Assembly (NCBI GenBank): GCA_964655245.1 | Contig: CAZZLQ010000003.1 | Span: 1,887 to 65,886 of the forward strand | From: an uncultured Bacteriovoracaceae bacterium | Lineage (GTDB): Bacteria; Bdellovibrionota; UBA2394 | Direction: 5' to 3' | DNA length: 64,000 nucleotides | Shown: piece after piece, positions 19,550 through 45,958 of the stretch | Layout of the letters: each line of letters opens with the position of its first letter | How positions within the stretch are numbered: position 1 is the first letter of the stretch | Translations under genes and position numbers: made by a program | The notes under the pieces: generated by a model | What the model saw: only the letters and a program-made list of their open reading frames with translations | What the model was told of the DNA's origin: nothing | Database searches by the model: none

Positions 19550-19604
19550 GGGATGTGCCAGAGCGATTCGGCTCTAAAGCCTTAAGAACCGCATCGAGAG
19601 ACCG

Positions 19605-22997: not shown

Positions 22998-23259
22998 GGG
23001 TTCTCCTTTTTGAAACAGTAGCCGAGTAAGCGCACATGTGCCGAGGAGGTTGCAAGTGGTATGCCATTCAAAGTTTGTTTTGTGATGGACAGCTTAAGTA
23101 AAGGAACTTTCAATCACTTACACTCGAGCACTCGAAAAGAAGGAAAACATCGCTCTCTTCGAAACTGCGGCAAGTTGGCCTCAGGAGGCACGCCAGAGTC
23201 TCAGAGTCTGCGTTACGTTCTTGTGGCATGCTCGGCGCTGAAGATTCCCCAAGGAATGC

Positions 23260-28220: not shown

Positions 28221-28288
28221 GCCATTTTATTCATTCGTTTCAATAGTTTAGACGTCTTTCACCCTAAACTCACGCCCGCCTCCCCCTG

Positions 28289-28304
28289 TGGAGATCAACT
28301 TGCA
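28289..28304 (+). promoter_or_regulatory. sigma-54-type -24/-12 element (TGGagaTCAACTTGCA) before modular pilin 1
   Basis: GG at 28290-28291 and GC at 28302-28303 separated by exactly 10 nt, perfect TTGCA -12 box; lies just upstream of the ATG at 28318. Confidence 0.35.
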
Positions 28305-28317
28305 AATCCACTCTGGC

Positions 28318-31059
28318 ATGAGGCGTCTGTGGTTGAATATCAGCATTTCTCGGTTCAGACTTTCCCAAAGCGGATTCAGTCTCGTTGAACTGCTCATGAG
28401 TCTTTCAGCACTCTTTGTCATCATCGGACTGAGTGTTCTCGGACTCAATCATCTTCGCTCAGGGCAATCGTTCATCATCAAACAAAATCGATTTCTTTCA
28501 GAGCTAGCCAAAGTCAAAGAAATCATTCGAGACGACATCCGAGTCGCTCTCTTAAACAATGGCTATACTTCAACAGAGGGCTTCGACGACCCAACAGCAG
28601 ATCAGTTTTACTTTGGCCTTGGAACGCAGACTCAAACAACGTCCCAACCTCAACTTCAAATCTTCAAGCCCCTCCATCAATCGCTGACAGTGCCTGTTTC
28701 TATTGCGGGCAATCAAGCAACCCTGACCACGATCCCCCGACTACGAGATTCGAGCGACCCACAGGCGACTCAACTTGCACAGTATTGGATTTCGGCTCTG
28801 CAAGAAGCAAAGTTCTTTACGATCACCAATGCGAGAAAAACAACTCTCATTGAAAAAGGCGCCGTTTCGGAAGCAGAGGAAGGTCCGTCGCTTGAAGCCA
28901 TTGGTGACACTCCTTTGAGCGAGGGAAACTCTGACTTTGTCAACTCAAGCAATCTCATTCGAACAGCTGAGAAGATCGAGTACTCATTTTCAGATCTCGA
29001 TGGAAGAATCACTCGAAAGAACCAGGCTCGAATCGATCAATCTGAGAACGTTGTTCTTCTTGAACGAGTTCGATCATTCAAAGTGGGCTACACCTTTCGA
29101 GACATGGACAGCGCCGGCATGATCATCCCTCGGCGGCCAAGTGAACCTTTGACTGCCGAGAATCTCCCCAACTCCTTTCAAGACGCCTGGAGTACACCCG
29201 ATGAAACCGGCCGAACCTGCCTCGTTGATGGACAGTTCGATCCTAGTAAGTGCGTCCAATCAAAACACATTGATCGAGTCTTTGTCAGAATCGAAGTTGA
29301 AACAGATTTCCCGCTGAGTTCCATTCCAACTCAAGCGAGCGACTATCAAGACATGAACATTCGCTGGGATCTCTCAACTGCCGATGGCAGAGCGATAGCC
29401 ATCGTGGACTTTCAAACTCAACCTGAAAACTTCAATCACCTGAGCGCTGGTCTCTTATCCTCAGGAACGAGTGTGAGCTGTTCGCCGACCCTTGAGAACC
29501 GATGCACACCCTCTTGCTCCAGCGCGTTTACTAATCCCAATCGCAATTCCAACGATTGGATTGGCTACGGCCGACACATTGGCCACCCCCATGGAGCCTC
29601 GAGCTACTGCCAATGCTGGACAAATCCCTCCAACCCAGCAGATGTTTCGATCGGAGATTGGAGTCGAGTGCCCACAATCAACTCCTGGATCAACGCCTCG
29701 CTCAGCGATCGAGATCGACTCACCGCCTGTGGCAAAGAGTACGGCTGTCACCATCCTGAGTCTTACAAACTCTTCGAAAGGAACCCCGCTTACCGACTGG
29801 CTTGCGGATGCTTGAGATCTTCAGACTCAATTCAAACGGATAACTACTACGTCAATCGCACAAGCGAGAATGCTCCCAAGTTTGAAAGCACAACGAGTCC
29901 AGAGCTTTTGGGCCATACACTCAACTCAACGCTGAGCTTGACCGATCCATCACTCTCAACGCTGAATCCGCTGAACCGATCTCTTCGCTGCGTAAACTAT
30001 CAGGCTTGCGATGCAGCCATGAATGCCTACTTTGGCGCCGGAACCTCAAACGGTCTTTTCATCAACCGCTGCCAATGCCTTAGCAATGACATCTCTGTGA
30101 AATGTGATACTCAAGCCATCAACGCCAACCCCAGCTCGATGACGGAGGAATGCAAAATGGCTCAAGGCGAGCCGATTAGTCCCTCGCACATCAACTACGC
30201 CAAAGTATGTAATCGAGATTTCCGAAATGGCACCGGCCCGATGACCTGCGCAAACACATGGAGCTCGACAGCTGGCCCCACCGCACCGAGTACAGTCCAG
30301 CCACCGTTTACAGGTGTGAGCATCACGGCGTGGAATCAAATCCCTATCAACAGTGACGTCACTGCTTTCAATCAAGCCACTCAAGAAGGTGGTGTGTATC
30401 AATTCCTATCGACGGGCTCGATCGATTTTAGTTCCAAGCTCGGAATCTCTCGAAGCGTTGCCGACGCTTGTGAGTGCCTCGAGAAGAAGATTCAAGGAGT
30501 CTTTGTTTCCGGCACAAATCAAACATCAACCTATGATTCTCTTACAGAGAATGAGCTGAGATCTTTTGCCTACCAAAACCTCAGCATCCTAGACTTTCGC
30601 CAGCCGCTTTTGAATCCACCCGCTGGAGCGCCCAGCTCTGCGCAACAAGACCGAAGCACTTTTGCATCTTATACGGACTCTCAACCATCCTCGTACAAAG
30701 CTATCTCAGCCTGCTCAGTCTTGGGAGATCCCAATGCTCCGTGCTTCAGCGTTGGAGCAGTCACTCCGACCGCGGGCTCGAAATCCTGTGGCCAATACTT
30801 TTGCAGCAACGTCACCGGCTCGGGACCGGGCTGCTGCACGATACCCAAGCCAGCAGCTCACAGCGCGATTGTTGATTCACTTGAAGCATGGAGTGGATTT
30901 TGCCACTCGAGCTGTCAGATTTTTAGCTCGACGCATCCGGCATTCAATCACGACGAAGTGGATGCCATTCGACGATGGATGACGGGAACTGCCGCAGGAG
31001 AGGAACTGCCAATCACCTGCGGTGGCAATGTTTCCGGCGATTCGCAACAGGCGTTTTAG
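28318..31059 (+). CDS. giant modular type IV pilin-like protein 1 (prepilin-type N-terminus, Cys-rich secreted C-terminal modules)
   Basis: ORF track frame 28288..31059; probable start is the ATG at 28318, giving leader 'MRRLWLNISISRFRLSQSG|FSLVELLMSLSALFVIIGLSVLGL' (G-1, E+5, hydrophobic helix = class III prepilin signal); paralogous to the 32880 and 37554 genes (shared blocks IFKPLHQSLTVPV, FRVGYTF, WIGYGR.GHP.GAS.YC.CWT, YxLACxCL, RCQCLS). Confidence 0.6.
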   Translation: MRRLWLNISISRFRLSQSGFSLVELLMSLSALFVIIGLSVLGLNHLRSGQSFIIKQNRFLSELAKVKEIIRDDIRVALLNNGYTSTEGFDDPTADQFYFGLGTQTQTTSQPQLQIFKPLHQSLTVPVSIAGNQATLTTIPRLRDSSDPQATQLAQYWISALQEAKFFTITNARKTTLIEKGAVSEAEEGPSLEAIGDTPLSEGNSDFVNSSNLIRTAEKIEYSFSDLDGRITRKNQARIDQSENVVLLERVRSFKVGYTFRDMDSAGMIIPRRPSEPLTAENLPNSFQDAWSTPDETGRTCLVDGQFDPSKCVQSKHIDRVFVRIEVETDFPLSSIPTQASDYQDMNIRWDLSTADGRAIAIVDFQTQPENFNHLSAGLLSSGTSVSCSPTLENRCTPSCSSAFTNPNRNSNDWIGYGRHIGHPHGASSYCQCWTNPSNPADVSIGDWSRVPTINSWINASLSDRDRLTACGKEYGCHHPESYKLFERNPAYRLACGCLRSSDSIQTDNYYVNRTSENAPKFESTTSPELLGHTLNSTLSLTDPSLSTLNPLNRSLRCVNYQACDAAMNAYFGAGTSNGLFINRCQCLSNDISVKCDTQAINANPSSMTEECKMAQGEPISPSHINYAKVCNRDFRNGTGPMTCANTWSSTAGPTAPSTVQPPFTGVSITAWNQIPINSDVTAFNQATQEGGVYQFLSTGSIDFSSKLGISRSVADACECLEKKIQGVFVSGTNQTSTYDSLTENELRSFAYQNLSILDFRQPLLNPPAGAPSSAQQDRSTFASYTDSQPSSYKAISACSVLGDPNAPCFSVGAVTPTAGSKSCGQYFCSNVTGSGPGCCTIPKPAAHSAIVDSLEAWSGFCHSSCQIFSSTHPAFNHDEVDAIRRWMTGTAAGEELPITCGGNVSGDSQQAF

Positions 31060-31073
31060 AAAGGAAGTGGGTG

Positions 31074-32702
31074 ATGCTTTTGAGATTTCAGCGGAGAATT
31101 CAAAATCGAGGACTTGCGATAATCACAGCGCTTGGCTTTCTTGCGTTGAGCTTGGGAATGGTTTTGTCACTTGCCTTCATGACCACTCGATTCAAAATGG
31201 AATCACGCTACTATGCGAGTCAGATTCACACTCAGATCGAAATCAAAGATCTCGCCAACCGAGTCCGAAAGGCTCTGCTTGCCGACGTGCAAGAGGCGAT
31301 AGCCACTTCTCGCGAACTTGATCTTGATCAGCTAAGAATTCAAATCGAAACTCAGATACAACAAGATGACCCCCATCAAACAAGTCCCTTCAAACTTTTG
31401 AGTTTACGCTGCATCGGCCAGGGAAGCTCTCCCAATGGTCTGTGCGATTCAAGTTCCGTTCTCCCTAAAATCTTTGACTTCAGCGTCCAAACAACCGATC
31501 GAGCAACGTCAGCGAACTCCCTGGTGAGCGCTGAGGTCCAAGTTCAAAATGCAGGACTAAGTTCATATGCCTTCCTCATCAAAAACGAAATGCGCCCCTC
31601 AGTAAGCCTCGGATCTGCTGTGTTTGCAGGGCTTTTTGGTATCAACTTCAATCGTCCGGCAGAGGAAGGCGAATTCGAAAGAAGAAGAATCAGATTTGAA
31701 ACACAGAATGGGGACATTACCTTTCAGAATGCTTTTGTGACAAATCTCAGCAGCCCGCAAGAGCAATTCGTCATTCCCAACGCCTCGCGAGTCCGCTTCG
31801 AGCAAGGAATCATCTCAAATCCCGAGGGAGTAAACTTCCAAAGCATTGATAACCTGTTTCCTCAGCTCAAGTCAGCGGCAGAAGATCTCAAGAATACAGC
31901 AGCCATCGGTGGCGAGCAAACATCACCTGAGTGCTCAAGAGTTGTCTTTCATGCAAACAGCTCGGCATTTGATTATTTTGAGTACATCGATCGAGATTGT
32001 TCCATTCCAAATTCAGCAGCGCAGCCCAATGGACCTATTCTCGGCAAAGCGATTGCCTCCAATGAAGTGATTTATGCTCGCGGCAACAAAGTGATTTTGG
32101 AAACTCAAAATCCCGACGGAAGGACAGGAATTGATAATATTGGAATTGTCGCGGATGGAAATGTGCATTTGCATTCATCGATTAGGCGCTCAGCCGCACT
32201 TGATCCTCTCAGCGGATTTCCATCTGTGATATCTCCCAAAGACCTGATTGTCAGTGCTGAAATGAGATCGCTCCTTCCGGGCAATCCAAGACTTCGTGAT
32301 ATCAGCGCCATTCCAGCAAATCATGACGAGCCCACGATTCAAGTCGATCTGAGTTACATCTCGGTCTCCAATGGAATCAGTAGCGGCTCACTTCAGGTGG
32401 ATCCTGCTCTACTCTCTGCAAGCCATCTGAGCGAAGCAACCGATTTGGGGAGAGCGAAGTTTTCTGGGCTCTACATCAGCGATCAAACACCGACGACACG
32501 AATGCTCTTTCCTGGCAGCGCATCTGTGGAAGGATTCTCTGAAACCGAATGGTCATACCCCTCAGCACTTTCAGCCGTTTCAACCGATTGGTTTAGAACT
32601 CAATTGGCAGGGGGCGCTCTTCAAGCACACGTCACTCGATACGAGATTCAAACCACTCAAATTCAAGAAGCTTTAGGCAGATTTTCAAACTCAGGCCACT
32701 AA
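31074..32702 (+). CDS. PilX-N-like transmembrane protein 1 (large PilX/minor-pilin-associated family), coupled to modular pilin 1
   Basis: Start ATG 31074 preceded by SD AAGGAAG (31061-31067), 14 nt after the pilin stop; N-terminus 'RRIQNRGLAIITALGFLALSLGMVLSLAF' resembles the PilX N-terminal domain; paralogous to the 35725 and 40424 genes (CIGQGS, NYAFLIKNE, IAIVADG, QVDLSYIS, GLYISDQTPTTR, WTYPxALSA..TDWFRTQL.GGAL). Confidence 0.55.
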   Translation: MLLRFQRRIQNRGLAIITALGFLALSLGMVLSLAFMTTRFKMESRYYASQIHTQIEIKDLANRVRKALLADVQEAIATSRELDLDQLRIQIETQIQQDDPHQTSPFKLLSLRCIGQGSSPNGLCDSSSVLPKIFDFSVQTTDRATSANSLVSAEVQVQNAGLSSYAFLIKNEMRPSVSLGSAVFAGLFGINFNRPAEEGEFERRRIRFETQNGDITFQNAFVTNLSSPQEQFVIPNASRVRFEQGIISNPEGVNFQSIDNLFPQLKSAAEDLKNTAAIGGEQTSPECSRVVFHANSSAFDYFEYIDRDCSIPNSAAQPNGPILGKAIASNEVIYARGNKVILETQNPDGRTGIDNIGIVADGNVHLHSSIRRSAALDPLSGFPSVISPKDLIVSAEMRSLLPGNPRLRDISAIPANHDEPTIQVDLSYISVSNGISSGSLQVDPALLSASHLSEATDLGRAKFSGLYISDQTPTTRMLFPGSASVEGFSETEWSYPSALSAVSTDWFRTQLAGGALQAHVTRYEIQTTQIQEALGRFSNSGH

Positions 32703-32814
32703 GGTCGCCTGAGCAATACCTACCGTCTCTGCAAGCTCATTCAAAGTCGGGCAAAACGGCCCGACCCTTATTCTAAGGGAATGGCTTTCTTGCCGGTTTT
32801 AAGCCGAAACAGCC

Positions 32815-32832
32815 TAGGCACCGGTTTTGCAA
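32815..32832 (+). promoter_or_regulatory. sigma-54 promoter (TAGGCACCGGTTTTGCAA) before modular pilin 2
   Basis: GGCAC-N5-TTGCA with GG (32817-32818) and GC (32829-32830) 10 nt apart; near-consensus -24/-12 element ~48 nt upstream of the ATG at 32880. Confidence 0.55.
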
Positions 32833-32879
32833 TCTCTAAACCTTGGTGTTGCAATAGGCGTGGCGACAGGAGTCGCCGA

Positions 32880-35699
32880 ATGCTGAGCCGTTTCATCCGC
32901 ACAAGAAAAATTCGAGCATTCACTCTCACCGAGTTCATGGTGTCTTTTGGCATTCTGGCCATTCTCGTTCTCGTTCTCGTGTTTGGAGTTGGCCGACTCA
33001 GAAGCACTCAAAGGAACGAACGACTTCGAGTTGATTTCCTTAACAGTCTAACGAATCTCAGAGCTGAATTCAAAAAGGACATTGAGGTTGCGCTTCTCAA
33101 CAATAGCCCTACGGCTGATGTGAATGTTTCCACGACGAATCAAAGTCGATTCTATGGAATTGGAACAAACATTGATACCACCGAGCAGTTTAGCTTTCAG
33201 ATCTTTAAGCCTCTTCATCAATCACTGACTCTGCCAGTAAAAGCTAACTCGCAAACCAATACTCTCACCATCGTTCCGTCCTCATCCGCCAGCGCCGCTA
33301 ACGAACGCACCTATCTGCAGCGAGCTCTGACCTCAGGAAAGTATTTTGTCATTTCGAATCAAACAGCTCAGGCGATTTTTGAGAGGCCCGCATCGTCATC
33401 CTCCAACAGTTCCTCCGCTCTCAGACTAGGCGCAATTCCCGCTGTGTCTTCATTTGGGACTCAGTTCACCGCGCAGAGCAATATGATTCGAACGGCCGAA
33501 AAAGTGACATTCGATTGGAATCAATCAAGCAAACTTCTGACTCGAACGTCGGATTACAGAACTGATTCCGCTCCCACGCAAGAACTGCTCTTCTCTAATG
33601 TGCTCGACTTTCGGGTGGGCTATACCTTTCGAACAAGGCAGGATACAGGAGTACAGGACAATGCCATCATTCCATCAAGGCCTGTGGGAATCCTCAGTGC
33701 ACTTAATCTACCCAATACTCTCGATGAGGCTTGGGCTCTGTCCAACTGCGTCGTCTCTGGACAACCCGCTGTTGTCAACGGACAGATCGTGCCGAACTGC
33801 GTAAAGCCCAAGAATATTGATCGCATTTATGTTCACCTTAAGATTCAAACTGATTTGCCAGTATCTCAGTTCGCCAGTCTGGATGCCGGAATCGAGGGCC
33901 TTCGAGTTCGCTTTGATTCCGCAACAAATGCAGCTCTTGTTGATTTCGAGCTCAGCTCACGAGCGTTCTCCCTCATGCAAGTGGCGCTCGCGAGCGGACA
34001 AAACATTACCTGTCAGCCAAACTCGGCAAGTCATTGTAAGCCAGAATGCTCCGAGATTTTTACGTCGCGCAATTCCAACGACGCCAATTGGATTGGCTAT
34101 GGTCGATATCGAGGTCATCCCCAAGGAGCTTCAGACTATTGCCTGTGTTGGACCGATCATGCGACGAATCAGATTGAAACAACAATGGGCAACTGGAGTC
34201 TTTTGCCCAACTGGACCGCCGGCGGAGACAACACACCTGAGAATAATCAAGTGGAGGCCTGCGGAAGACACTACGGTTGTGATGCAACCTTTCTGAGGCC
34301 TGATAACAATTGGCAAAGTGCGACCCCTGGACGAATCGTTCATCCGGGCTACAAACTGGCGTGCGATTGTTTGCAAGGTCCAAGCACAAACACCAACTTC
34401 TTTGTCAATCGCACAACTGATTTCAAACCCCGTTTCGACTCATCCACCGGACCACAACAAGGCGGCTTTACACTCAATAGCACGATCACTCAGTACAAAA
34501 ACAATTCAACATCGAATCCCTATCTGGAGCCTCAAGATCGCCATCTGAGTTGCGAGAAGCCGAGTCAATGTATCACGTCAATGAATCGCTACTATGGAAT
34601 TCCAAGTACAAGCACGGCCGCTCAGGATACCTTGAATGCTCGCTGCGGCTGTCTCACTCAGAACATTCCTTGGTCCTGTGACACTCGAAATCCCTCTCAA
34701 GCGCAAAGTGATGCCTCTTGCCGATCCGCCACCGGCAGTATCATTTCCTATCAAGAGCTGAACTTTGCAAGACTCTGCAACAGAGACTACCGACACAATT
34801 CGAATCAAAACCCCCTGTCATGTCCCAACACTTGGGCGCCGCGGGACCAAACGGGCACGGTCAATCTCCCTCACTTCAACTTAAGTCTCGATGTCTTTGC
34901 CACTAACAATCCTGATCCCGCTCTACCAGCCGATCGATACAATATTGAAAATGCTTCAGGCAATATCGCCTTCTCTCGCCGCTTTGGCATCACCAGAACC
35001 GTGGCCGAAACTTGCGAATGCTTAGCAAACAATATCGCTGGCGAATTTCATACAACGGGCAGTGGCAGCTCGCTGAGCTATGGTTATAGCCCGAATCTCG
35101 ACACGAGCAATAATCCCAATACAAACACTCTCTATCCGCCAACTCTGGTCGAAGGTATCGCCAACCTAGATTTTCGAGCTCCAAACAGGGCCCCCACAAC
35201 TGCAGTGTCAGGCCTAAGCTCTCCGGCATTTCCCACGAGCCATCCAATGATGTCAGTCTCCTATCCTACTTTCGGCTCCAATGTTTCTCAAACATCTCCC
35301 AACTACTCTGTGGTGACCACTGATGGCGCAGGTGCGAGGACATTTAGTACGTGGGCTCCGAGCCAAAGCTGCGGTGCCAATCACTGTACCATCAACACAA
35401 GCGCCGGACTGGGCTGCTGCCTTCAACAGCAAGCTTCAAACGTCGCATCAATCACTGCGGTCAGCAATTTGCTACAGCCTTGGAATGGATTCTGTCGGAC
35501 AGCAATCCTGCCAACGTGCACCGCCATCGGCGCCGTAGGGAGCACCACCATAATTGCCCAGAATGCAGTCTCAGCAGAAATGAATAGCATCCGTCGGTAC
35601 ATCACCCAGCGAACAAATCCCACCGGTGCTGCTAACTCAAATGCCAATCTCCCCGCTGATTGCGGTGGACCAGCAGGATCCGGAGTGGCTGGACAATAG
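32880..35699 (+). CDS. giant modular type IV pilin-like protein 2
   Basis: ORF track frame 32781..35699; probable start ATG 32880 with SD AGGAG (32868-32872); leader 'MLSRFIRTRKIRA|FTLTEFMVSFGILAILVLVLVFG' (A at -1, E+5); paralog of pilins 1 and 3. Confidence 0.6.
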   Translation: MLSRFIRTRKIRAFTLTEFMVSFGILAILVLVLVFGVGRLRSTQRNERLRVDFLNSLTNLRAEFKKDIEVALLNNSPTADVNVSTTNQSRFYGIGTNIDTTEQFSFQIFKPLHQSLTLPVKANSQTNTLTIVPSSSASAANERTYLQRALTSGKYFVISNQTAQAIFERPASSSSNSSSALRLGAIPAVSSFGTQFTAQSNMIRTAEKVTFDWNQSSKLLTRTSDYRTDSAPTQELLFSNVLDFRVGYTFRTRQDTGVQDNAIIPSRPVGILSALNLPNTLDEAWALSNCVVSGQPAVVNGQIVPNCVKPKNIDRIYVHLKIQTDLPVSQFASLDAGIEGLRVRFDSATNAALVDFELSSRAFSLMQVALASGQNITCQPNSASHCKPECSEIFTSRNSNDANWIGYGRYRGHPQGASDYCLCWTDHATNQIETTMGNWSLLPNWTAGGDNTPENNQVEACGRHYGCDATFLRPDNNWQSATPGRIVHPGYKLACDCLQGPSTNTNFFVNRTTDFKPRFDSSTGPQQGGFTLNSTITQYKNNSTSNPYLEPQDRHLSCEKPSQCITSMNRYYGIPSTSTAAQDTLNARCGCLTQNIPWSCDTRNPSQAQSDASCRSATGSIISYQELNFARLCNRDYRHNSNQNPLSCPNTWAPRDQTGTVNLPHFNLSLDVFATNNPDPALPADRYNIENASGNIAFSRRFGITRTVAETCECLANNIAGEFHTTGSGSSLSYGYSPNLDTSNNPNTNTLYPPTLVEGIANLDFRAPNRAPTTAVSGLSSPAFPTSHPMMSVSYPTFGSNVSQTSPNYSVVTTDGAGARTFSTWAPSQSCGANHCTINTSAGLGCCLQQQASNVASITAVSNLLQPWNGFCRTAILPTCTAIGAVGSTTIIAQNAVSAEMNSIRRYITQRTNPTGAANSNANLPADCGGPAGSGVAGQ

Positions 35700-35724
35700 A
35701 GACAGGTGTGAAGAAGGAGTTCTT

Positions 35725-37416
35725 ATGATGGCAATCACTCAAACAAAAATCAAAAAACAAAATCGCGGAATGGCTTTGATGCTGATTCTCGGATCTCTTT
35801 TGTTGGCGACGGCCGCTTTTGTGGGATTCTATCGAGCCTCTCAAAGCTTTCTTCGAAAAACGACGAGCTATGCTTCTCAAGTGCAGACGGAGTTTGATAG
35901 CGCTCACCTTGCCGAACGAACACGACGAGCGATCCTGAGAGAGGCTCAAATGAGAATGGCTGGCAATGGCGCCACCAATCTCATGAATACTCTCACTCCT
36001 GAGGTCCTTCAAACTTCTGTTTTTTTGCAACCCGGTGAAAGAATCTTGCAGGTTCGATGCCTTGGACAAGGAGCAGAAGATGCCTTCCAGCATGAAGTTT
36101 GCACAGCTTCAAGCGTCCTGCCCAAAGTCCTAGAGTTCTCTGTTCAATCGACGGATCCTAGCACTCAACAAATGAGAGTCGTTCGACAGGAAATCCATCT
36201 TAACAATCCCTCGCTGAACAATTACGCCTTTCTCATTCGAGCGGAGGATCGAGAGCAACAGTTTACGCTCTTTCCAGCCACGTATGCAGGCCTCTATGGA
36301 ATCATTTTCACCAACCCCAATCTCGTCCTTCCACCCCCCTCGGGAAGCTCCATTTCACCTCGCAGAATCAAACTGGCTCCGGATCAGTACACGGGAAATC
36401 TCATTTTTCAGAAGGCTTTCATCACTAATCTTCCGAACCCCCGGGACCAAATTGAGATCCCCAGCTCCGCTGCCAACTATCTCCAAATGCCAGCAGGTGT
36501 AGTCTCGGCAGCCACTGGCGGTCTAGACTTTGGTCGAGTCAACTCAGTCTATGACGATCTCAAAAGCTCCGCCGTCAATGCCTCAGCGCTCGCTACTCTC
36601 CCACCAGGAACAGTGATCAACTGCTCAAGAGTAACCCTCATGAGAAGTGCGTCGCGCGTTCGATATCAAAACTTCAGTGATACTGGGTGCACAACGGCCA
36701 TTGACTCACCCACAGAGTATCCCATGCAAGCCAACCAATCGATTTATGCTCGGGGCCAAAACGTTCTTCTCAATTCCGAAGTCACCTCAGGCGGAATAAC
36801 ATCCGACAATGGCATGACCAAAGTAGATAATATCGCCATTGTCGCCGATGGAACCGTCCAACTCCTCAGCTCCATTCGAAGGGATTCAACCATGGATCCC
36901 CTCAGCGGATATCCTGCGGTGATGACACCCGGACAGCTGATGATTTCTCAAAACATGACGACCTTGCTGAGCGGATCTCAAACTCTGGGGCAGATAACTC
37001 AAAATCAAGGTCTTTCATCAAGCAGTACTAATCCAACGATTCAAGTGGACCTCAGTTTCATCGCTGCGGGAAACAGTCTCGGCCAAGCCAACGTCGTCGT
37101 CGATCCTCAACTCTTTGGATCAAGTGGAGTGCAGTCAGCTGGAAATGCTGTCAGCCTGGGCAAAGCCGTCTTCAATGGAATGTACATCAGCGACAAAGTG
37201 CCAACGACTCGAGTTGTTTATAGTAGCGTGATAACGGACGGATTTAACAAGATCGATTGGACTCATCCAGCGGCGCTTTCGTCTGTCCAAACCGATTGGT
37301 TCTCAGCACAATTGGGAGGAGGTGCACTTCAGGCTTCAGTTGTACGATCCGAGCAGACGACTCTCGATTTGAGTCAGGCTCTGAGCGCCTTCAATGGACC
37401 CTCAATGGGGAACTGA
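35725..37416 (+). CDS. PilX-N-like transmembrane protein 2, coupled to modular pilin 2
   Basis: Start ATG 35725 with SD AAGGAG (35714-35719), 25 nt after the pilin stop; N-term 'KQNRGMALMLILGSLLLATAAFVGFY'; paralog of the 31074 and 40424 genes. Confidence 0.55.
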   Translation: MMAITQTKIKKQNRGMALMLILGSLLLATAAFVGFYRASQSFLRKTTSYASQVQTEFDSAHLAERTRRAILREAQMRMAGNGATNLMNTLTPEVLQTSVFLQPGERILQVRCLGQGAEDAFQHEVCTASSVLPKVLEFSVQSTDPSTQQMRVVRQEIHLNNPSLNNYAFLIRAEDREQQFTLFPATYAGLYGIIFTNPNLVLPPPSGSSISPRRIKLAPDQYTGNLIFQKAFITNLPNPRDQIEIPSSAANYLQMPAGVVSAATGGLDFGRVNSVYDDLKSSAVNASALATLPPGTVINCSRVTLMRSASRVRYQNFSDTGCTTAIDSPTEYPMQANQSIYARGQNVLLNSEVTSGGITSDNGMTKVDNIAIVADGTVQLLSSIRRDSTMDPLSGYPAVMTPGQLMISQNMTTLLSGSQTLGQITQNQGLSSSSTNPTIQVDLSFIAAGNSLGQANVVVDPQLFGSSGVQSAGNAVSLGKAVFNGMYISDKVPTTRVVYSSVITDGFNKIDWTHPAALSSVQTDWFSAQLGGGALQASVVRSEQTTLDLSQALSAFNGPSMGN

Positions 37417-37520
37417 AATGCCTATGAAAGCTTTGCACTCTTCGGACAATTTTGGTCCCTCCTCGCAAGCCATCTCAGCCAAAACCCTGACGGTAAGCGC
37501 CTAAACCTCGATAGAGCACG

Positions 37521-37536
37521 GGGCATTAGTTTTGCA
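37521..37536 (+). promoter_or_regulatory. sigma-54-type -24/-12 element (GGGCATTAGTTTTGCA) before modular pilin 3
   Basis: GG-N10-GC spacing with perfect TTGCA; 17 nt upstream of the GTG start at 37554. Confidence 0.45.
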
Positions 37537-37553
37537 GTCGCTAAACGGTTGGC

Positions 37554-40424
37554 GTGGTTTGGCAACGATCGATATGGAATCCCCAGAAGGGATTTAGTCT
37601 TACGGAATTGCTCATCTCAATAGCACTTCTGAGTCTTCTCGTTGCGGTGGCCTACCTCGGCGTTTCAAGCTTACGAGAACGGCGAAACATTGAATCTGCG
37701 AGACTGAACTTTTTCCGAACTGCCGCGGAGATCAAAAACAAAATCAAAGATGATATCGAAGTGGCTATTCTCAACAACGGTTTTACTGCCTCAAGAAACC
37801 TATCCGCTCAGCAATTACAAAATGCTAATAGCCAAAAGTATTTTGGCCTCGGAACAAGCTTCCTCACGAATGACTATGCCAACGTCGAGCTCCAGATCTT
37901 TAAGCCATTCAATCAATCTCTGTCCGTTCCCGTTCGAGTTGATGCCAAAAAGGCTCGGATCCTGGGATGGCCGAACGGCTTGGACGCCACCTCCAGACAG
38001 TACTGGGAAAAAGCAGCAACGTCGGCCAACTATTTTGTGATTAGTAATGAACGAAAAAACATTATCTTCCCGCGAGGGTCACAGAGCTCAGCTTCCGCGG
38101 CGCAGGCCGAAATATTTCCGATGACTTCCTCAGCCCTCGACGGAACGCCGTTTAGCAGCCCATCAGCAGTTGCGGATTTCAGTCAGTCGGCCAACATTAT
38201 TCGAACCGTTGAGAAAGTTCGCTATGTTTACGATTCCGAGACTCAGCGCCTGACTCGCTCGGGTCACTATCAGCAAAATCAAAATAGTCAGAGCCTTATC
38301 GCTGACAGAGTTCTTGGCTTTCGCGTTGGCTACACTTTCAAACGCATGGACGCCAATGATCTTGCCATTCTCCCCCCTGATCCCGAAACTGATCCCACTG
38401 ATCCCGAAACTGCCCCTTCCGCCCGAAATCTACCCAACAGCTTTACTGAGGCCTGGGCAGTTTCGAATTGTGCAGGAACAGGAAATCCCATCGATGCATC
38501 AGGTCAGATCATTCCAACATGTGTGAAGCCCCAAAACATCAATGATGTTTACATCAGCCTCACTATGGAAACCGATCTTCCGATGCGTGCAGCTCAAGCG
38601 TTGGATCAATACGAAGATATGCAGATCGAAATGGGTGGCAATATCGAGACCAATCAAGTGATTGCGACGATTAGCTTTCGAATCAAGCCTCGAAGTTTTT
38701 CAAACTCGCTGGGCAGCGATCTCGCTTCAGGCCAAGCTGTCACCTGTGCCGCGACGGAAGCGAACCGATGTAAGCCATCTTGCACAGCGGCCTTCAAGAA
38801 TCTCAACCGAAATGCTGATGATTGGGTTGGCTACGGACGATACGTTGGGCATCCGGATGGAGCATCGAGCTACTGCAAGTGCTGGACAGACCCTGATACC
38901 AATGAAGTTCATCTGGGAGATTGGACAAGAATTCCTCAGTGGAGTAGCGCCCCCACAGCCGAGCAAAAATCCCGAACGGAAGCTTGCGGCCTTGAGTATG
39001 GCTGCCATTGGGGAACCGTTTGGAAGCATGAAGGTTATCAGCTCGCGTGCAATTGTCTTCGCACACAAGACGCCGTGAGCGAGCATTTCGTTCTTCGTGA
39101 CGACCAAAACAGACCTTCGTTTGCCAACGCGACTGCATCTGAAACCGGCGGATTTGCTCTGCGCAATCTCAATTGGAGTGATCCGCATCTCTCCAGCATC
39201 AAAGACGATGGAGCTCTGAGCAAAGCCATTCGTTGCTACAACTATCCTGCCTGTTGGGCTGCCATGACCACGTACTTCAATGAAATTGGTCAAGGAGGCG
39301 AATTACCAAGTGGCACTCCCGAGAACAACTTGTTTACCGAACGATGCCAATGTCTTTCACGAGATATCCCCTACGCTTGTGATGTCAAAACAATCTCTGA
39401 GGGAGAAAAACCTTCAGATGCTTGTCTCAACAGTGAGGGCGAAGCAATCGCCCGAGGCTATATTGACTTCTCCAAGATCTGCAACCAAAACGCCCGAAAC
39501 GGCACAGGACCTGTAGCTTGCGTGAACACTTGGATGAGCAAAGCCCCCTCCGGAGAGGTCATGATGCCACCGTTCAATGCCAATCTTAGTGAAAATCTTA
39601 CAGATTTTCGAAACCCTCTAGGCATCCAGATCAACGATGAGGGATTCTACTTTGGCTACGGCTCAGGTGACTTTGCTTCTAAACTGGGGCTGGAGGAGGA
39701 TCTGATCAAAGCCTGCGAGTGCATGGAAAAGCGCGTTTCAGGACAACAACAAGGCACATCCTTCCAAGAAGTTAACGATCCAAGCTCCTTCATCTATCCT
39801 TCGTGGCCTGGCTATCTCGACTTCCGACTGCCAAGCACAACTACGCAGAGCTACTCTCCACCTGGTTACCAGCGACTCTACGCAACAGATGGCTCCTACA
39901 AAGACAGCACGATTCCCACCTATAAAGTTGTGACCCGAACTCAGTTTACTTATCACACCGTTCGACCGGCTGATTGCACAAGCTGGGGATCCTGGGTGAT
40001 CGGCGAATGCAAACTCGGTGGAGCGTTTCGACTTTGCGATAGTAGTTTTTGGCCAGAAGCTCTCTCAGACGCCAATCGAGATACGATGATTGGGCAGTGC
40101 CGAGTTTCTGCAGCGAACAATTCCGCATTCACTGGTGTCCCTACTCTGATTGAACGAACTGAAGATGCCTCAAACACCTGCGGCGACAATCTCTGCAGAA
40201 TGGGATTTGGCGGAACTCACTGCTGTACGAACCAATATCCAGATGCCAATGGCTTGATCTATGACTCGATGGAGAGCTGGAGTGGCTACTGCAGAGCTGA
40301 GTGCGGGGGATCCAATTACCAAATGGATCGGGTCAACAATCTCAGAGATCTGATCACAGAGGTTCCGGGACTGCCCTTTGGATGCGGTGGAAATCAGCAA
40401 TCTAACGGCGAGGGAGCTCTGTAA
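37554..40424 (+). CDS. giant modular type IV pilin-like protein 3
   Basis: GTG start; leader 'MVWQRSIWNPQKG|FSLTELLISIALLSLLVAVAYLG'; paralog of pilins 1 and 2; contains a DPETDPT tandem peptide repeat and a Cys-rich C-terminal half. Confidence 0.6.
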   Translation: MVWQRSIWNPQKGFSLTELLISIALLSLLVAVAYLGVSSLRERRNIESARLNFFRTAAEIKNKIKDDIEVAILNNGFTASRNLSAQQLQNANSQKYFGLGTSFLTNDYANVELQIFKPFNQSLSVPVRVDAKKARILGWPNGLDATSRQYWEKAATSANYFVISNERKNIIFPRGSQSSASAAQAEIFPMTSSALDGTPFSSPSAVADFSQSANIIRTVEKVRYVYDSETQRLTRSGHYQQNQNSQSLIADRVLGFRVGYTFKRMDANDLAILPPDPETDPTDPETAPSARNLPNSFTEAWAVSNCAGTGNPIDASGQIIPTCVKPQNINDVYISLTMETDLPMRAAQALDQYEDMQIEMGGNIETNQVIATISFRIKPRSFSNSLGSDLASGQAVTCAATEANRCKPSCTAAFKNLNRNADDWVGYGRYVGHPDGASSYCKCWTDPDTNEVHLGDWTRIPQWSSAPTAEQKSRTEACGLEYGCHWGTVWKHEGYQLACNCLRTQDAVSEHFVLRDDQNRPSFANATASETGGFALRNLNWSDPHLSSIKDDGALSKAIRCYNYPACWAAMTTYFNEIGQGGELPSGTPENNLFTERCQCLSRDIPYACDVKTISEGEKPSDACLNSEGEAIARGYIDFSKICNQNARNGTGPVACVNTWMSKAPSGEVMMPPFNANLSENLTDFRNPLGIQINDEGFYFGYGSGDFASKLGLEEDLIKACECMEKRVSGQQQGTSFQEVNDPSSFIYPSWPGYLDFRLPSTTTQSYSPPGYQRLYATDGSYKDSTIPTYKVVTRTQFTYHTVRPADCTSWGSWVIGECKLGGAFRLCDSSFWPEALSDANRDTMIGQCRVSAANNSAFTGVPTLIERTEDASNTCGDNLCRMGFGGTHCCTNQYPDANGLIYDSMESWSGYCRAECGGSNYQMDRVNNLRDLITEVPGLPFGCGGNQQSNGEGAL

Positions 40425-42106
40425 TGAAACGAGGTCACTCTATGACTTTCTCTTCCCTTCAACGGAAGCAATCTAACGGAATGGCAATCGTCGTCGTCCT
40501 AGGAATACTTCTGATCGGGATAGGATTAATGATTGGTTTCATGAAGAGCTCTGCTCGATTCAATCAAAGCAATGTGCAACGCTCCGCTAAAATTCAATCA
40601 GATCTAAAGACAGACAGTCTTTCGGACCGCTTGCGAAGAGCGATACTCCAAGAGGTTCAAGCCCGAATGGCTGAAACGGGAATGACTCAAGCAACGGTTA
40701 GCCTGGGTGGACAGCAAATCCTCGACTCTCAATCCATCCAACGTCTTCCCATGGAAGTCAATCAACGGATCTTATCCATTCGATGCATTGGACAAGGCAG
40801 CACGCCCTCGGGTGTCTGCACAAGCCAAAACATTCTTCCAAAGATTTATGATTTTGCCGTGCAAACCATCGATCAAGATACCGGAACCATCACAATGGCA
40901 CATACAGAGTTCCAAATTCAAAATGCAAGCTTGAGCTCATACGCTTTCTTTATCAAAAATGAAATGGCCCCATCTGTGACTTTGGGATCCGCCATCTTTG
41001 ATGGGATTTTTGGAATCAACTTTGCTCCAACTCCTAATGGTCAAACTCCTCCCCCCCAGCAGCGCATACGATTTCGACCAGGAGCCGGCAATATCACCTT
41101 CAAAAATGTTTTAATGACCAATCTTCCCAATCCCCAAACTCAGTTTGATCTGCAACAAAACTCTCAAGTTCATTTCGAGCAAGGTGTGATCTCAAATCCT
41201 GAGGGGGTAAGCTTCTCCAATCTCGACAACCTTCATAACACCCTCGTCAATCAAGCTGTGAATGCTGGGTTCTCTGCACCCCCAGGAACTCCGACGCCTG
41301 AGTGCTCATCCATCGTCCTTCAGAGTGATGGAAAGCTCCAGTACAATGAATTTTCTGATGTCGCCTGCGAGGATTCTTCGCTCCAAATGTCTGATATCTC
41401 GATGGTGGCAAATCAAGCCTTCTATGCTCGGGGCAACAAAGTTCTCCTCTCAGCAAACGATCCTCAAGGAATCACGAGAGTCAAAAACATTGCCATTGTC
41501 GCTCAAGGAAATGTTGAACTGAGATCATCGATCGTTCGCGATGCGGAAAATCTCAGCGCGCTTGAGGGCTATCCCACAGTGATCACTCCCGGAAATCTTG
41601 TCATTCCAAAGGAAATGAAAACCCTCCTTAACAGCGGCACCTCTACTTTAGAGGACATCAATCCTGGCGTTGGAAGTGATGTTGAATATCCAACGATTCA
41701 ACTCGATCTGAGTTATATCTCCGTCAGACCTCAAGGATCTCAAGGTGTGATGGGAGGATCGGTTAGATTTGATCCAGAGCTCAGAAATGCAGGAACAAGT
41801 GATGACGCCATCAATCTTGGCAAAGCCCACTTCAATGGTCTCTACATCAGCGAACAAACCCCCACGTCCCGAGTTCTCTTTCAAAACTCCGATCGAGTCG
41901 ACGGCTTTAAAGAAGTCAAATGGACCTACCCTCCAGCTCTGTCAGCTATCGGAACTGATTGGTTTCGAACCCAGCTCAACGGTGGGGCCCTGAGAGCCAC
42001 AGTGACTCGATACGAAAAACAGTTTACCGACGTACAACAAGCTCTGACCGCTTTTCGAGGCGGCACCTCCGTCACGGAGATCAAGCAAGCAGAGACCTTT
42101 GAGTAG
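40424..42106 (+). CDS. PilX-N-like transmembrane protein 3, coupled to modular pilin 3
   Basis: ATG overlaps the pilin 3 TAA (TAATG); N-term 'QSNGMAIVVVLGILLIGIGLMIGFM'; paralog of the 31074 and 35725 genes. Confidence 0.55.
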   Translation: MKRGHSMTFSSLQRKQSNGMAIVVVLGILLIGIGLMIGFMKSSARFNQSNVQRSAKIQSDLKTDSLSDRLRRAILQEVQARMAETGMTQATVSLGGQQILDSQSIQRLPMEVNQRILSIRCIGQGSTPSGVCTSQNILPKIYDFAVQTIDQDTGTITMAHTEFQIQNASLSSYAFFIKNEMAPSVTLGSAIFDGIFGINFAPTPNGQTPPPQQRIRFRPGAGNITFKNVLMTNLPNPQTQFDLQQNSQVHFEQGVISNPEGVSFSNLDNLHNTLVNQAVNAGFSAPPGTPTPECSSIVLQSDGKLQYNEFSDVACEDSSLQMSDISMVANQAFYARGNKVLLSANDPQGITRVKNIAIVAQGNVELRSSIVRDAENLSALEGYPTVITPGNLVIPKEMKTLLNSGTSTLEDINPGVGSDVEYPTIQLDLSYISVRPQGSQGVMGGSVRFDPELRNAGTSDDAINLGKAHFNGLYISEQTPTSRVLFQNSDRVDGFKEVKWTYPPALSAIGTDWFRTQLNGGALRATVTRYEKQFTDVQQALTAFRGGTSVTEIKQAETFE

Positions 42107-42200: not shown

Positions 42201-42217
42201 TTGGCAACAATCTTGCT
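42201..42217 (+). promoter_or_regulatory. sigma-54 promoter (TTGGCAACAATCTTGCT) before the MshEN-like gene
   Basis: TGGCAa-N5-TTGCt, GG (42203-42204) and GC (42215-42216) 10 nt apart; ~55 nt upstream of the ATG at 42273, which has SD AAGGGAG. Confidence 0.5.
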
Positions 42218-43735: not shown

Positions 43736-45958
43736 GTGACCCATGGATGCCTCAGAATGTTAGAATATCGTATGCGACACATCTTCCTCGTTTTAGCCTT
43801 CAGCCTTGCTTTTGTCGCATGCCAGAAGACACCTCCCGTCCTCCAGCCCAATAGCGAAGCCGTTCAAGATGCGGCCAAAGCCATCACTCAAAAAAACTGG
43901 AATGAACTCATTAACGAAACAGCTCGTGCTGAGGACCCCCTCCTTCAACTCGCTCATGTCTATTCCCTCTTTCAGAGTAACAAGTTTCAGGAGATTCTCG
44001 ACTTCAAATACACACCGTCGGCTCTGGATTCCTACTTTCGATATCTTTCACTCTTGTCTGCCTACCAGGTCAAAAAGTTCGACTACCTGAGAACCCAGGA
44101 GATTCCTCACGATCTTCCCAAAAAACTGAAGAACAACATTATCATTGCGATTGCTGACTCCTATCTCGATGAGAACAAGCTCAAAGAGGCACGAAAAGCC
44201 TATCTCGATTATTTCAACTCCAAAGATTCTCATCGGCGAGCTCAAGTCCTCCTAAAGCTCGCGGGCGTGGAGTGGGAACTCGGCCTGAAGGAAGCCGCTC
44301 TGGAGCACTATCAGACTCTCTACGAAAACTTTCCTCTGGATGACAGTGAGGATCTTGCGCTTCTGCGTCTAGTGAGCGGAAACAAATTTCAAGAAATCGA
44401 TACCTCTAAGCACTTGCAACGCGTCCAACAACTGCGGCGATCAGCCCAATTCGAACGGGCCGGTAATTTACTCGAAACTCTCAACCGAGCACTCGACGCC
44501 AAAGACCGTGCCAAGCTTGAATTTGCTGAAGCCCAGCTTCAGTTTGCTCAAAAACAATACACTCGAGTTGAGACAAGAGCAAAAGAGGCTATCAAACAGA
44601 GTCGGGACCACACTCTCAAAACAAATTGGATTGAGCTCATGGGTTGGGCGCAACTGAGACTAGGGCGATATGAAGATGCCAAAAAGACCTATCAAGATCT
44701 GCTCAATACCAAGATCCCCTCAAGTATGAGAGAAGCAGTGCTCTTTCGACTTGGGGTAGCTGCCGTTGATTTCGAGGACTACAAAGCGGCTGTGCCCGTC
44801 TTCGAAGATCTTTTGAAAAATCACTCCCGCGGACGATTTGTGGAAAGTAGTCACTGGTTTGGTGCATGGTCTCTCTATCAACTTTCGCAATCCCAAAAGC
44901 CCCCAGCACCTGAAGGGCTTGAGAAAGCCATTCGGTATCTTGAAAAACTCCCGAGCTTATCCAGCGGAGGTCATTTCATTCCGCAAAGTCTTTATTGGAG
45001 ATACCGAGTTTATGAGGCCCTCGGGCAAAAAGACAAACAAGAGGAGATTCTTCAAGAGTTGCAGTCCAAATGGAGGCTGTCATTTTACAGCTCCCTCATT
45101 CAACCCAAGTCTTTTAATGCCGTCACACGTCGAGACGTAGAGATTAACAATGAAGTTCCTCAATACGCTCCTGAGAGCTTCGCAAGTTATCAGGAATCAC
45201 CGACTTGGCAGCGACTTGAATCTTTCCGCGCTCTTCATTTGATGGAATGGGCTCGCCTTGAGCTCGAGTTGTTTTTAAATCAAAACAGATCGCTCAGCCG
45301 TGAAGACAAAATCGTCGTTGCTCAGCGGCTTCGTGACATCGGCGATTGGCCGGACCTCATCCGCTGGACCGAGCGGAATATCGTGCCCTCACTCGAAAAG
45401 GCCGATGAGGATCAAGTTGCCCTCAAGCTTCTCTACCCCTTGGCCCATGAGAAGTATGTTTTAAGATCCGCTGAGGAAGCACGAATCTCACCCTTTATTG
45501 TTTGGGGGGTGATGCGAGAGGAAAGCCGCTTTGAAGTGGAAGTGCGATCGGGAGCTGGTGCCGAAGGCCTCATGCAATTGATGCCATCCCTTGGAAAGCG
45601 CCTTGCACAAGCCTTAGGAGAAAAATCACACCGAGGTTTCTTACTTGATGCCCGTCGAAACATTCGCCTGGGAACCTATCATCTTCGAGAGCTTTTGGAT
45701 GAAGTCCGAGAACTTCCCGTTTCTCCTGAACTGCGCATCGTACTGGCGGTTGCCGCTTACAACGCTGGCATTGATCCTGTTCGACGCTGGGTTCAAGAGC
45801 AAGACACCACCCAAGTGGATGTATTCATCGAAAATATTCCCTATACGGAGACTCGACAGTACGTGAAGCGAGTTCTTCAAACCGCAATGATCTACTCAAA
45901 GCTTTACGAGCTTCCTCAAAAAACGGTGGCTCGTACACTCAATCGAGGAGACCTATGA
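43736..45958 (+). CDS. soluble lytic murein transglycosylase (Slt70-like, superhelical TPR-like region + SLT domain)
   Basis: 740 aa; signal peptide; C-terminal SLT motifs 'EESRFEVEVRSGAGAEGLMQLMPS' and 'AYNAG'. Confidence 0.8.
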   Translation: MTHGCLRMLEYRMRHIFLVLAFSLAFVACQKTPPVLQPNSEAVQDAAKAITQKNWNELINETARAEDPLLQLAHVYSLFQSNKFQEILDFKYTPSALDSYFRYLSLLSAYQVKKFDYLRTQEIPHDLPKKLKNNIIIAIADSYLDENKLKEARKAYLDYFNSKDSHRRAQVLLKLAGVEWELGLKEAALEHYQTLYENFPLDDSEDLALLRLVSGNKFQEIDTSKHLQRVQQLRRSAQFERAGNLLETLNRALDAKDRAKLEFAEAQLQFAQKQYTRVETRAKEAIKQSRDHTLKTNWIELMGWAQLRLGRYEDAKKTYQDLLNTKIPSSMREAVLFRLGVAAVDFEDYKAAVPVFEDLLKNHSRGRFVESSHWFGAWSLYQLSQSQKPPAPEGLEKAIRYLEKLPSLSSGGHFIPQSLYWRYRVYEALGQKDKQEEILQELQSKWRLSFYSSLIQPKSFNAVTRRDVEINNEVPQYAPESFASYQESPTWQRLESFRALHLMEWARLELELFLNQNRSLSREDKIVVAQRLRDIGDWPDLIRWTERNIVPSLEKADEDQVALKLLYPLAHEKYVLRSAEEARISPFIVWGVMREESRFEVEVRSGAGAEGLMQLMPSLGKRLAQALGEKSHRGFLLDARRNIRLGTYHLRELLDEVRELPVSPELRIVLAVAAYNAGIDPVRRWVQEQDTTQVDVFIENIPYTETRQYVKRVLQTAMIYSKLYELPQKTVARTLNRGDL

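Follow-up and report, generated by a model that had tools for sequence, protein, structure and literature searches.

Tandem pairs of giant minor-pilin-like genes in an uncultured Bacteriovoracaceae bacterium as candidate alternative tips of a type IV filament

Introduction

Predation by Bdellovibrionota depends on type IV filaments; of how these predators recognise and grip their prey, little is understood. A 64,000-nucleotide stretch of contig CAZZLQ010000003.1 (assembly GCA_964655245.1, positions 1,887 to 65,886, forward strand) from an uncultured Bacteriovoracaceae bacterium, here called the window and numbered from its own first base, gives this problem a concrete form: it carries three consecutive pairs of large genes, each encoding a giant protein with a prepilin-like N-terminus (protein A) and a large partner with a pilin-type helix (protein B). 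What do these pairs build, and why are there three of them? We consider it probable, at about 0.6, that each A-B pair supplies the two subunits at the apex of a priming or tip complex, in a type IV filament that is most probably a type IVa pilus (T4aP). The predatory setting is itself presumed from a single metagenome-assembled genome (MAG) labelled Bacteriovoracaceae.

Three tandem gene pairs

Six large open reading frames (ORFs) on the forward strand follow each other in A-B-A-B-A-B order between positions 28288 and 42106:

28288..31059, forward strand: A1, maximal ORF of 923 aa, a predicted giant minor pilin by paralogue alignment, comprising a class III signal, a GspJ/PilW-class N-terminal domain and a Cys-rich C-terminal module
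31074..32702, forward strand: B1, predicted ComZ-like minor pilin of the GspK/PilX class (maximal ORF 30975-32702)
32880..35699, forward strand: A2, predicted giant minor pilin, 939 aa (maximal ORF 32781-35699)
35725..37416, forward strand: B2, predicted ComZ-like minor pilin of the GspK/PilX class (maximal ORF 35626-37416)
37554..40424, forward strand: A3, predicted giant minor pilin, 956 aa; the copy that was modelled
40424..42106, forward strand: B3, predicted ComZ-like minor pilin of the GspK/PilX class; the copy that was modelled

This layout bears out an earlier reading of the same DNA, made from its letters and ORFs only (the sequence-only reading), which had described three consecutive A-B pairs of common architecture. 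The paralogues align over their full length, A1-A3 with 33-39% identity (BLASTP E-values 1e-133 to 1e-155) and B1-B3 with 38-46% pairwise identity. The motif blocks listed in that reading are indeed all invariant columns of these alignments, those of protein A comprising QIFKP, IRT.EK, F.VGYTF, NLPN and W.GYGR..GHP.GAS.YC.CWT, together with ACG..YGC, LAC.CL, RC.CL and the C-terminal CGG.

Gene B was said to start 1-25 nt after gene A or to overlap it as TAATG, and this too is what is seen. The likely start of B1 is ATG 31074, which has GGAAG in front of it and lies 15 nt past the A1 stop; that of B2, at 35725, lies 25 nt past the A2 stop; and the start of B3 overlaps the A3 stop as TAATG. Depending on the start chosen, B1 has ∼542-575 residues, B2 ∼563-596 and B3 554-560. 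For A2 the likely start is ATG 32880, with AGGAG 7 nt upstream (939-972 aa by start). The true start of A1 is uncertain, the candidates being TTG 28300, ATG 28318 and TTG 28333; a protein 99.9% identical to A1 is found in NCBI.

The triplication is old, rather than a recent duplication or an assembly artefact, because at the DNA level only short blocks recur among the cassettes (60-84% identity, with a period of 4.6-4.7 kb). In the MAG labelled Bacteriovoracaceae (locus L002), orthologues of cassette 2 are followed by orthologues of cassette 3, with identities of 60% for A2, 61% for B2 and 77% for cassette 3. Since both are present there, the paralogues predate that divergence. The substitution pattern indicates purifying selection on the cassette genes; the N-terminal part of A3, compared with its MAG orthologue, gives a nonsynonymous distance (dN) of 0.127 and a synonymous distance (dS) of 0.84. 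In the corresponding dN/dS comparison of cassette 2, synonymous sites are saturated.

Copy number differs from locus to locus. L001 has a single A-B pair, L002 and L003 each have two or more, and the window has three. The 435-kb contig of a close relative (JGI 3300059473 / NCBI) has the same flanking genes and exactly two pairs, of 937+571 aa and 930+561 aa, and we conclude that the number of cassettes varies among close relatives.

Protein A: a pilin N-terminus followed by a Cys-rich module

Each A protein begins with a class III prepilin signal. With the cleavage site marked by a slash, this is G/FSLVELL at 28372 in A1 (the G/F cleavage motif spanning 28372-28377), A/FTLTEFM at 32916 in A2, in the context KIRA/FTLTEFM with Ala at position -1, and G/FSLTELL at 37590 in A3, in the context PQKG/FSLTELL; all three have Glu at +5. 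A3 passes the cut-offs of both the Pfam N_methyl model PF07963 (29.7 bits against 21.2) and TIGR02532 (26.8 against 16.3). A1 (14.8 bits) and A2 (18.4 bits) fall just under the N_methyl cut-off, and likewise under that of TIGR02532. In the wider A family described below, N_methyl matches at E<1 are seen in 31 of 56 members, and a profile built from these 56 matches the α1 helices of solved type IV pilins in the PDB with E-values of 3e-8 to 5e-4, and nothing else in that database. Of 52 family members, 31 have Ala and 21 have Gly at position -1; at +5, 33 of them have Glu and 18 have Gln.

An AlphaFold 2 (AF2) model of A3, built from an alignment of eight sequences, has an overall predicted local distance difference test score (pLDDT) of 46.7 and is usable only for residues ∼15-380, where a 60-residue helix is followed by β-sheets. 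In this model the N-terminal domain has a GspJ-type globular fold, and its best structural matches are to GspJ, a type II secretion system (T2SS) pseudopilin. A Foldseek search of the PDB with the A3 model, most of which is of low confidence, gave only meaningless matches to T-cell receptor and major histocompatibility complex structures (E > 0.02). The curated PilW and GspJ models (PF11612, PF16074, TIGR01711) do not match A1-A3; within the family there are weak matches to PilW in 4 of 56 members (best E 1.5e-4), to T2SSJ in 2 and to gspJ in 6. Membership of the Verru_Chthon cassette proteins (TIGR02596-TIGR02600) was rejected, with no match at the curated cut-off; A3 scores 20.7 bits against TIGR02599 (cut-off 256.5), over its N-terminal 75 residues only.

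The class III signal, the α1-helix profile match and the modelled GspJ-class domain all agree with the sequence-only reading in making A a type IV pilin-like protein. Going by the model, A is a PilW/GspJ-class minor pilin of modular build, with a large disulfide-rich module.

Beyond the N-terminal domain of A3 lie ∼570 residues that contain all 32 of its cysteines, 8 of which are invariant across the 56 sequences. This module has no match in Pfam, NCBIfam or the PDB, and PDB profile searches with the C-terminal module of A came back empty. Four CxC(L/W/M) motifs suggested internal repeats, an idea that was dropped when hhalign aligned only 3-14 columns at <7% probability.

The C-termini of A1-A3 (∼31020-31059, ∼35650-35699 and ∼40380-40424) and of ∼80 family clusters share a conserved LPxxCGG, after which comes a short tail rich in G, S, N and Q, the last residue being in most cases F, L or Y. 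Its reading as a sortase-type or MYXO-CTERM-type tag was rejected, there being no transmembrane segment after CGG. Autotransporter, PilY1, sortase-type and MYXO-CTERM-type readings were likewise set aside, no such domains having been detected, and the PilY1/PilC propeller (Pfam Neisseria_PilC) has no match in A, in B, or in the 56 A-family and 14 B-family members. The sequence-only reading had named the absence of a pilin helix, the absence of similarity among the copies and membership of a known unrelated family as grounds for giving it up; none of these was found.

Protein B: a ComZ-like pilin with an inserted solenoid

The N-termini of the B proteins, QNRG/LAIITAL in B1, QNRG/MALMLIL in B2 and QSNG/MAIVVVL in B3, have no Glu5, a residue that PilX and GspK are known to lack (PMC7541494). 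The AF2 model of B3, from an alignment of 14 sequences, has a pLDDT of 76.8 and a predicted template modelling score of 0.72. It comprises a helix (residues 11-82) and a GspK-like pilin fold into which an ice-binding-protein-like β-solenoid is inserted, and its best structural match is ComZ. B1 and B2 probably share the fold modelled for B3. None of 14 B proteins has a Pfam match, PilX_N (PF14341) included, and the only family-model match is a sub-threshold one of B2 to the NCBIfam GspK model NF037980 (13.4 bits, cut-off 130, E 0.042; residues 47-119). On the strength of the model we describe B as a ComZ-like pilin of the GspK/PilX class, with a pilin-type helix that lacks Glu5. ComZ itself is a GspK-like pilin whose solenoid is inserted before the last strand, and it has been argued on steric grounds to occupy only the pilus tip (PMC6561018).

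The resemblance to ComZ raises the question of whether the pairs are DNA receptors of competence pili, given that ComZ is a DNA-binding protein without which Thermus is not transformed (PMC6561018). We regard this as very improbable. Without sequence similarity to ComZ, the lysines with which ComZ binds DNA cannot be placed on B, the presence of three diverged copies and of a Cys-rich partner points to varied ligands rather than to DNA, and the solenoid-bearing PilX proteins of cyanobacteria serve motility pili too.

The same structural matches could be taken to mean that the pairs form GspJ-GspK tips for a T2SS pseudopilus, as alternatives that choose different substrates: T2SS pseudopilins provide the best matches of A and some of the best of B, and GspK has been proposed to touch substrates (cited in PMC7541494). 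The minor pilins of the true pili of Thermus, however, likewise resemble T2SS pseudopilins, so that the likeness does not discriminate, and the closest match to a whole protein, ComZ, belongs to a pilus system (PMC6561018). No gsp genes lie near the cassettes, genes for GspH and GspI do not accompany the pairs, and it is hard to see a use for a 60-kDa disulfide-rich module and a solenoid on a pseudopilus, which is short and periplasmic. A T2SS role therefore seems quite unlikely.

Conservation of the A-B pair

An exhaustive HMMER search of 1.84 billion proteins with a profile of eight close A proteins (E<1e-3) recovered 96 representative clusters. Some 80 of these have 700-1130 residues, a prepilin-type N-terminus, 20-36 cysteines and the C-terminal LPxxCGG. 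The close family is very rare: 5.8 billion proteins yielded only 6 clusters of A and 13 of B, and when the A alignment was used for another word-index search of proteins, the same 6 came back and none that were new. Close loci are rare too; one was found among 185,579 species genomes (GTDB) and one more, a short one, in a metagenome contig collection. The 56-member alignment proved too divergent to seed a contig scan.

The pairing of A with B is conserved across the wide family. In all five distant pairs that were fetched, a B homologue follows directly after A; these homologues have 547-659 residues, start between -4 and +27 nt from the A stop, and match the B profile with E-values of 4e-9, 3e-25, 2e-11, 2e-26 and 8e-21. 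As in the window, the five distant pairs are set among unrelated housekeeping genes.

Two further observations concern the surroundings of related pairs. One distant pair (L008) adjoins a divergent gene for a 1166-aa flagellin with an FG-GAP insert (2174-5674, reverse strand), and in L001 a DUF4423 gene lies directly upstream of the A-B pair.

A proposed tip complex

These features suggest a mechanism, the first half of which draws on the fold classes found here and on what is known of GspI-J-K and PilVWX-PilY1 (PMC6561018, PMC7541494). Both proteins would enter the inner membrane through their hydrophobic N-terminal helices. Prepilin peptidase would cut A after the Gly or Ala at -1, leaving Phe at +1 and Glu at +5. 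B, with its GspK/PilX-type N-terminus lacking Glu5, would cap the complex in the outermost position, and A, of the GspJ/PilW class, would dock beside or below it. Once at the filament tip, the A-B complex would display two bulky modules, the ice-binding-protein-like β-solenoid of B and the disulfide-rich module of A, of ∼570-650 residues, which may together serve as plug and adhesin in place of those of the PilY1 type. The three old and diverged cassettes, each behind its own sigma-54-type promoter, would then supply three alternative tips that differ in binding. The identity of the filament, the processing of the proteins, their joining into a complex and its place at the tip, the binding partners of the tips and their control by sigma-54 are all parts of this proposal rather than of the observations, as are the tip-adhesin role and a repertoire for prey recognition.

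Several points weigh against this reading. No pilus machinery, major pilin or minor pilin of the I or H class is present in the 64-kb window or beside the five distant pairs, and the link to any particular filament is therefore indirect. The Ala at -1 (in A2 and in 31 of 52 family members) and the Gln at +5 (in 18 of 52) are atypical of PilD substrates. The folds were assigned on AF2 models whose alignments are shallow (8 sequences for A, 14 for B); the curated PilW, GspJ, PilX_N and GspK models all score below threshold on the window proteins, and in PDB profile searches the B profiles recover neither ComZ nor GspK by sequence. In Myxococcus xanthus, PilW3 is inactive when fused to the bulky superfolder green fluorescent protein, possibly because the fusion cannot get through the secretin (PMC7541494), and it follows that a J-class pilin bearing a 60-kDa module is not obviously exportable. 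Finally, the Cys-rich module has no known relatives from which a function could be read.

Some of these points would also fit another explanation, in which A and B are envelope proteins rather than filament subunits and the pilin-like helix is only an anchor or export signal. The lack of adjacent pilus genes and the atypical Ala -1 and Gln +5 are in keeping with it, as are the very large size of both proteins and the fact that most of A is unmodelled. Both proteins, however, have complete pilin-type globular domains, of the complementary J and K classes and in the canonical gene order, and this J-K arrangement is kept across a wide family, which is hard to explain without incorporation into a filament. 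We therefore judge a purely anchoring role of the helix to be improbable, and retain an apical A-B complex as the preferred reading. Like this explanation, the secretion and DNA-receptor readings are less likely than the tip complex.

Promoter-like elements and neighbouring genes

Sequences resembling sigma-54 promoters lie before each A gene and before a small ORF downstream of B3:

28289..28304, forward strand: sigma-54-type -24/-12-like element TGGAGATCAACTTGCA, upstream of or overlapping the annotated A1 start; a weaker match than the other three
32746-32765: terminator-like hairpin, preceding the A2 element and parting B1 from the putative A2 promoter
32816..32831, forward strand: sigma-54-type element AGGCACCGGTTTTGCA, which precedes the A2 start by 49 nt
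37521..37536, forward strand: sigma-54-type element GGGCATTAGTTTTGCA, upstream of A3; its counterpart in L003, GGGCATTGGTTTTGCA, lies before an A gene
42202..42217, forward strand: sigma-54-type element TGGCAACAATCTTGCT, upstream of the small ORF; kept in L003
42273..42563, forward strand: the small ORF, an MshEN-like protein of 96 aa with a putative cyclic di-GMP-binding motif; orthologues of 95-101 aa occupy the same spot in all close relatives

The A1 element TGGAGATCAACTTGCA has GG and TTGCA cores at the correct spacing, and if it is real the A1 start must lie downstream of the annotated ones, at ATG 28318 or TTG 28333. The pattern GG-N8-TTGCW occurs 27 times in the window, counting both strands, and 5 of these occurrences lie in the four regions, 709 nt in all, that lead up to A1, A2, A3 and the small ORF, where 0.15 would be expected (Poisson P 5e-7, calculated post hoc). 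In L001 and L003, matching elements stand before the A genes and before the small ORF. Given an element before each A gene, and the terminator-like hairpin, each cassette looks like its own sigma-54-dependent unit.

A possible source of activation lies nearby, in a sigma-54 enhancer-binding protein with FHA, AAA+ and HTH_8 domains (45955-47373, forward strand), three genes downstream of B3, past the small ORF, a PGI-like gene and an SLT-TPR transglycosylase, and syntenic in relatives; that it controls the cassette promoters is conjecture. The 96-aa protein scores 35.2 bits against NF053729 (cut-off 38, E 7.9e-9), and its PDB matches are to the N-termini of PilF, MshE and PilB (E 0.0015-0.2). 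It may bind cyclic di-GMP, being of a type otherwise found on pilus ATPases, and is a possible regulator, presumably belonging to the same system.

Taken to its full extent, the proposal is of PilY1-independent, sigma-54-switched alternative tips confined to a predatory Bdellovibrionota lineage, in which an undescribed receptor-binding fold with ∼13 disulfides, borne by a PilW-class pilin, and the ComZ-like solenoid of that pilin's partner would set which prey or surface is gripped. This complete version is a tentative one, and we think it more apt to fail in some part than to hold throughout.

Upstream, the cassettes are flanked by genes for cystathionine-pathway enzymes and an inositol monophosphatase, and downstream by the PGI-like, SLT-TPR and sigma-54 activator genes already mentioned. 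A prepilin-motif scan found no other prepilin-type ORF in the 64-kb window; the scan also picked out a small TatA-like ORF, MFGLGTTELIILAGILFLLFGASKLPQ, in the 7060 region (reverse strand), which is not a pilin. Rfam and tRNA scans of the window gave no matches.

A T2SSE-family ATPase (58407-59540, forward strand), 16 kb downstream of the cassettes, is TadA/VirB11-like and not PilT-like. Two genes upstream of one distant A-B pair, in L007, is an ATPase (345-1580) 36% identical to it, with an N-terminal extension of ∼110 residues; an FHA domain suspected by eye in this extension, which would have been a KilF-like trait, has no Pfam match and was not retained.

These ATPases bring in the most interesting of the rival explanations, that the pairs are tips of Tad/Kil-type pili and thus the Bdellovibrionota counterpart of the KilL/M/N prey-killing 'Tips' of Myxococcus. 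Those too are paralogous minor-pilin clusters of a predator, with a large pilin whose distal domain is unidentified and which has many predicted disulfides, and tip-like complexes have been predicted in Bdellovibrio bacteriovorus (PMC12075869); Bdellovibrio predation is moreover impaired on depletion of TadG (bioRxiv 10.64898/2026.07.08.737194). The signal of A, however, is of the GFxxxE type (N_methyl, TIGR02532) and not of the TadE type; neither Pfam TadE nor Tad (TadG-like) matches A, B, the 56 A-family or the 14 B-family members even at E<=1, and the best structural matches of A and B are GspJ and ComZ/GspK. Kil/Tad tips are encoded by three-gene TadE/F/G sets, and the tip predicted for B. 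bacteriovorus, Bd0114/0115/0148, is another gene set, while the FHA domain of the L007 ATPase is unconfirmed by Pfam. On balance a Tad/Kil-type tip is unlikely.

Other features of the window are noted for completeness. A gene at 52744-54726 (reverse strand) encodes an FHA domain and a GltG/AgmX-like C-terminal domain of the adventurous-gliding-motility type, and is adjoined by an outer-membrane-protein β-barrel gene (52162-52743). A DUF4423 protein is encoded at 18066-18959 and a small protein with a dockerin-type motif at 18917-19549 (both reverse strand), the latter with a perfect sigma-54 consensus, TGGCACATCCCTTGCT, at 19545-19560 (reverse strand). Perfect TGGCAT-N5-TTGCA sites also occur at 23051-23066 (reverse strand), before a HEAT-repeat gene (22056-22997), and at 58354-58369 (reverse strand), before a gene for an 852-aa TPR protein (55756-58314).

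Comparison with known systems

A J-class gene followed by a K-class gene is the canonical order in the operons of both the T2SS (gspH-I-J-K) and T4aP (fimU-pilV-pilW-pilX). The Thermus locus, pilA1-pilA2-pilA3-comZ, likewise has J and then K. The A-B pairs keep this order, with both of their members larger than usual. The sequence-only reading knew of no characterised system for this pairing, but the order is the standard one for minor pilins and pseudopilins (PMC6561018). Nor does its suggestion hold that pilin N-termini on large modules are unusual, as large modular pilins are widespread (PMC8179133).

The closest counterpart is the pilA3-comZ pair of Thermus thermophilus, in which a GspJ-like pilin gene is followed by a large GspK-like pilin gene. 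Like B, ComZ has a late-inserted ice-binding-protein-like β-solenoid, lacks the usual pilin motifs and has been argued to sit at the tip (PMC6561018). The differences are that B has no detectable sequence similarity to ComZ, that the J-class partner is here about four times larger, with its ∼570-aa Cys-rich module, and that here there are no I- or H-class genes and the unit is triplicated.

A similar solenoid design is seen in the PilX subfamilies of cyanobacteria, where a PilX-class pilin is broken by a triangular ice-binding-like solenoid. The design has been reported to be universal there and has been proposed to substitute for the PilY1 'plug', and distinct minor-pilin sets prime specialised filaments (bioRxiv 10.64898/2026.02.12.705559). 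These proteins belong to another phylum, their partner pilins are of ordinary size, and a Cys-rich J-class fusion is not described there.

The multiplication of tip sets has a parallel in Myxococcus, which has three minor-pilin/PilY1 clusters for its T4aP (PMC7541494). As in the window, the FimU-PilV-PilW-PilX-PilY1 clusters of M. xanthus provide several paralogous tip or priming sets in one genome, PilX follows PilW and lacks Glu5, and the sets have been proposed to form tips of differing properties (PMC7541494). Here, in contrast, multiplication is limited to the J and K classes, PilY1 is absent, and the adhesin-sized mass lies inside the pilins themselves.

The Kil (Tad) system of Myxococcus, with four paralogous KilL/M/N tip complexes, disulfide-rich large pilins and a role in prey killing (PMC12075869), resembles the cassettes in its predatory host and in the interchangeability of its paralogous complexes. 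It also has one large pilin whose distal domain lacks structural homologues, and disulfides are predicted there in large number (PMC12075869). Its tips are nevertheless three-gene TadE/F/G sets of the Tad type, whereas those proposed here are two-gene sets of a GFxxxE-type GspJ-like and a GspK/ComZ-like pilin.

Modular type IV pilins such as PilB and PilC of Streptococcus sanguinis and CofB also carry a grafted bulky module, are predicted to be confined to the tip and are widespread (PMC8179133). The module of A differs in having no Pfam/InterPro-type signature, so that a survey of that kind would miss it, and in being placed on a J-class core pilin that is paired with a K-class solenoid pilin.

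Each of the ideas brought together here, namely modular pilins, K-class tip pilins with solenoids and alternative tip sets, thus has a published counterpart. Were the pairs to serve ordinary surface adhesion, they would be one further case of a well-documented theme. If the preferred reading of an apical A-B complex is correct, a tip module present in one to three diverged copies, apparently with regulated promoters of their own, offers concrete candidates for specificity determinants. It would also extend the modular-pilin concept to a core J-class minor pilin, bring the ComZ/solenoid-PilX design to a third phylum and define an extracellular disulfide-rich domain of ∼600 residues without known relatives. 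Set against the known systems, four features are new: the predicted fusion of a core J-class pilin to a module of ∼600 residues and ∼13 disulfides that has no relatives; the stand-alone J-K two-gene module, with the A architecture in ∼80 divergent clusters and the pairing in five of the five loci checked; the tandem multiplication of this module with what look like separate sigma-54-type promoters; and what seems to be its confinement to a rare lineage, one with kinship to Bacteriovoracaceae.

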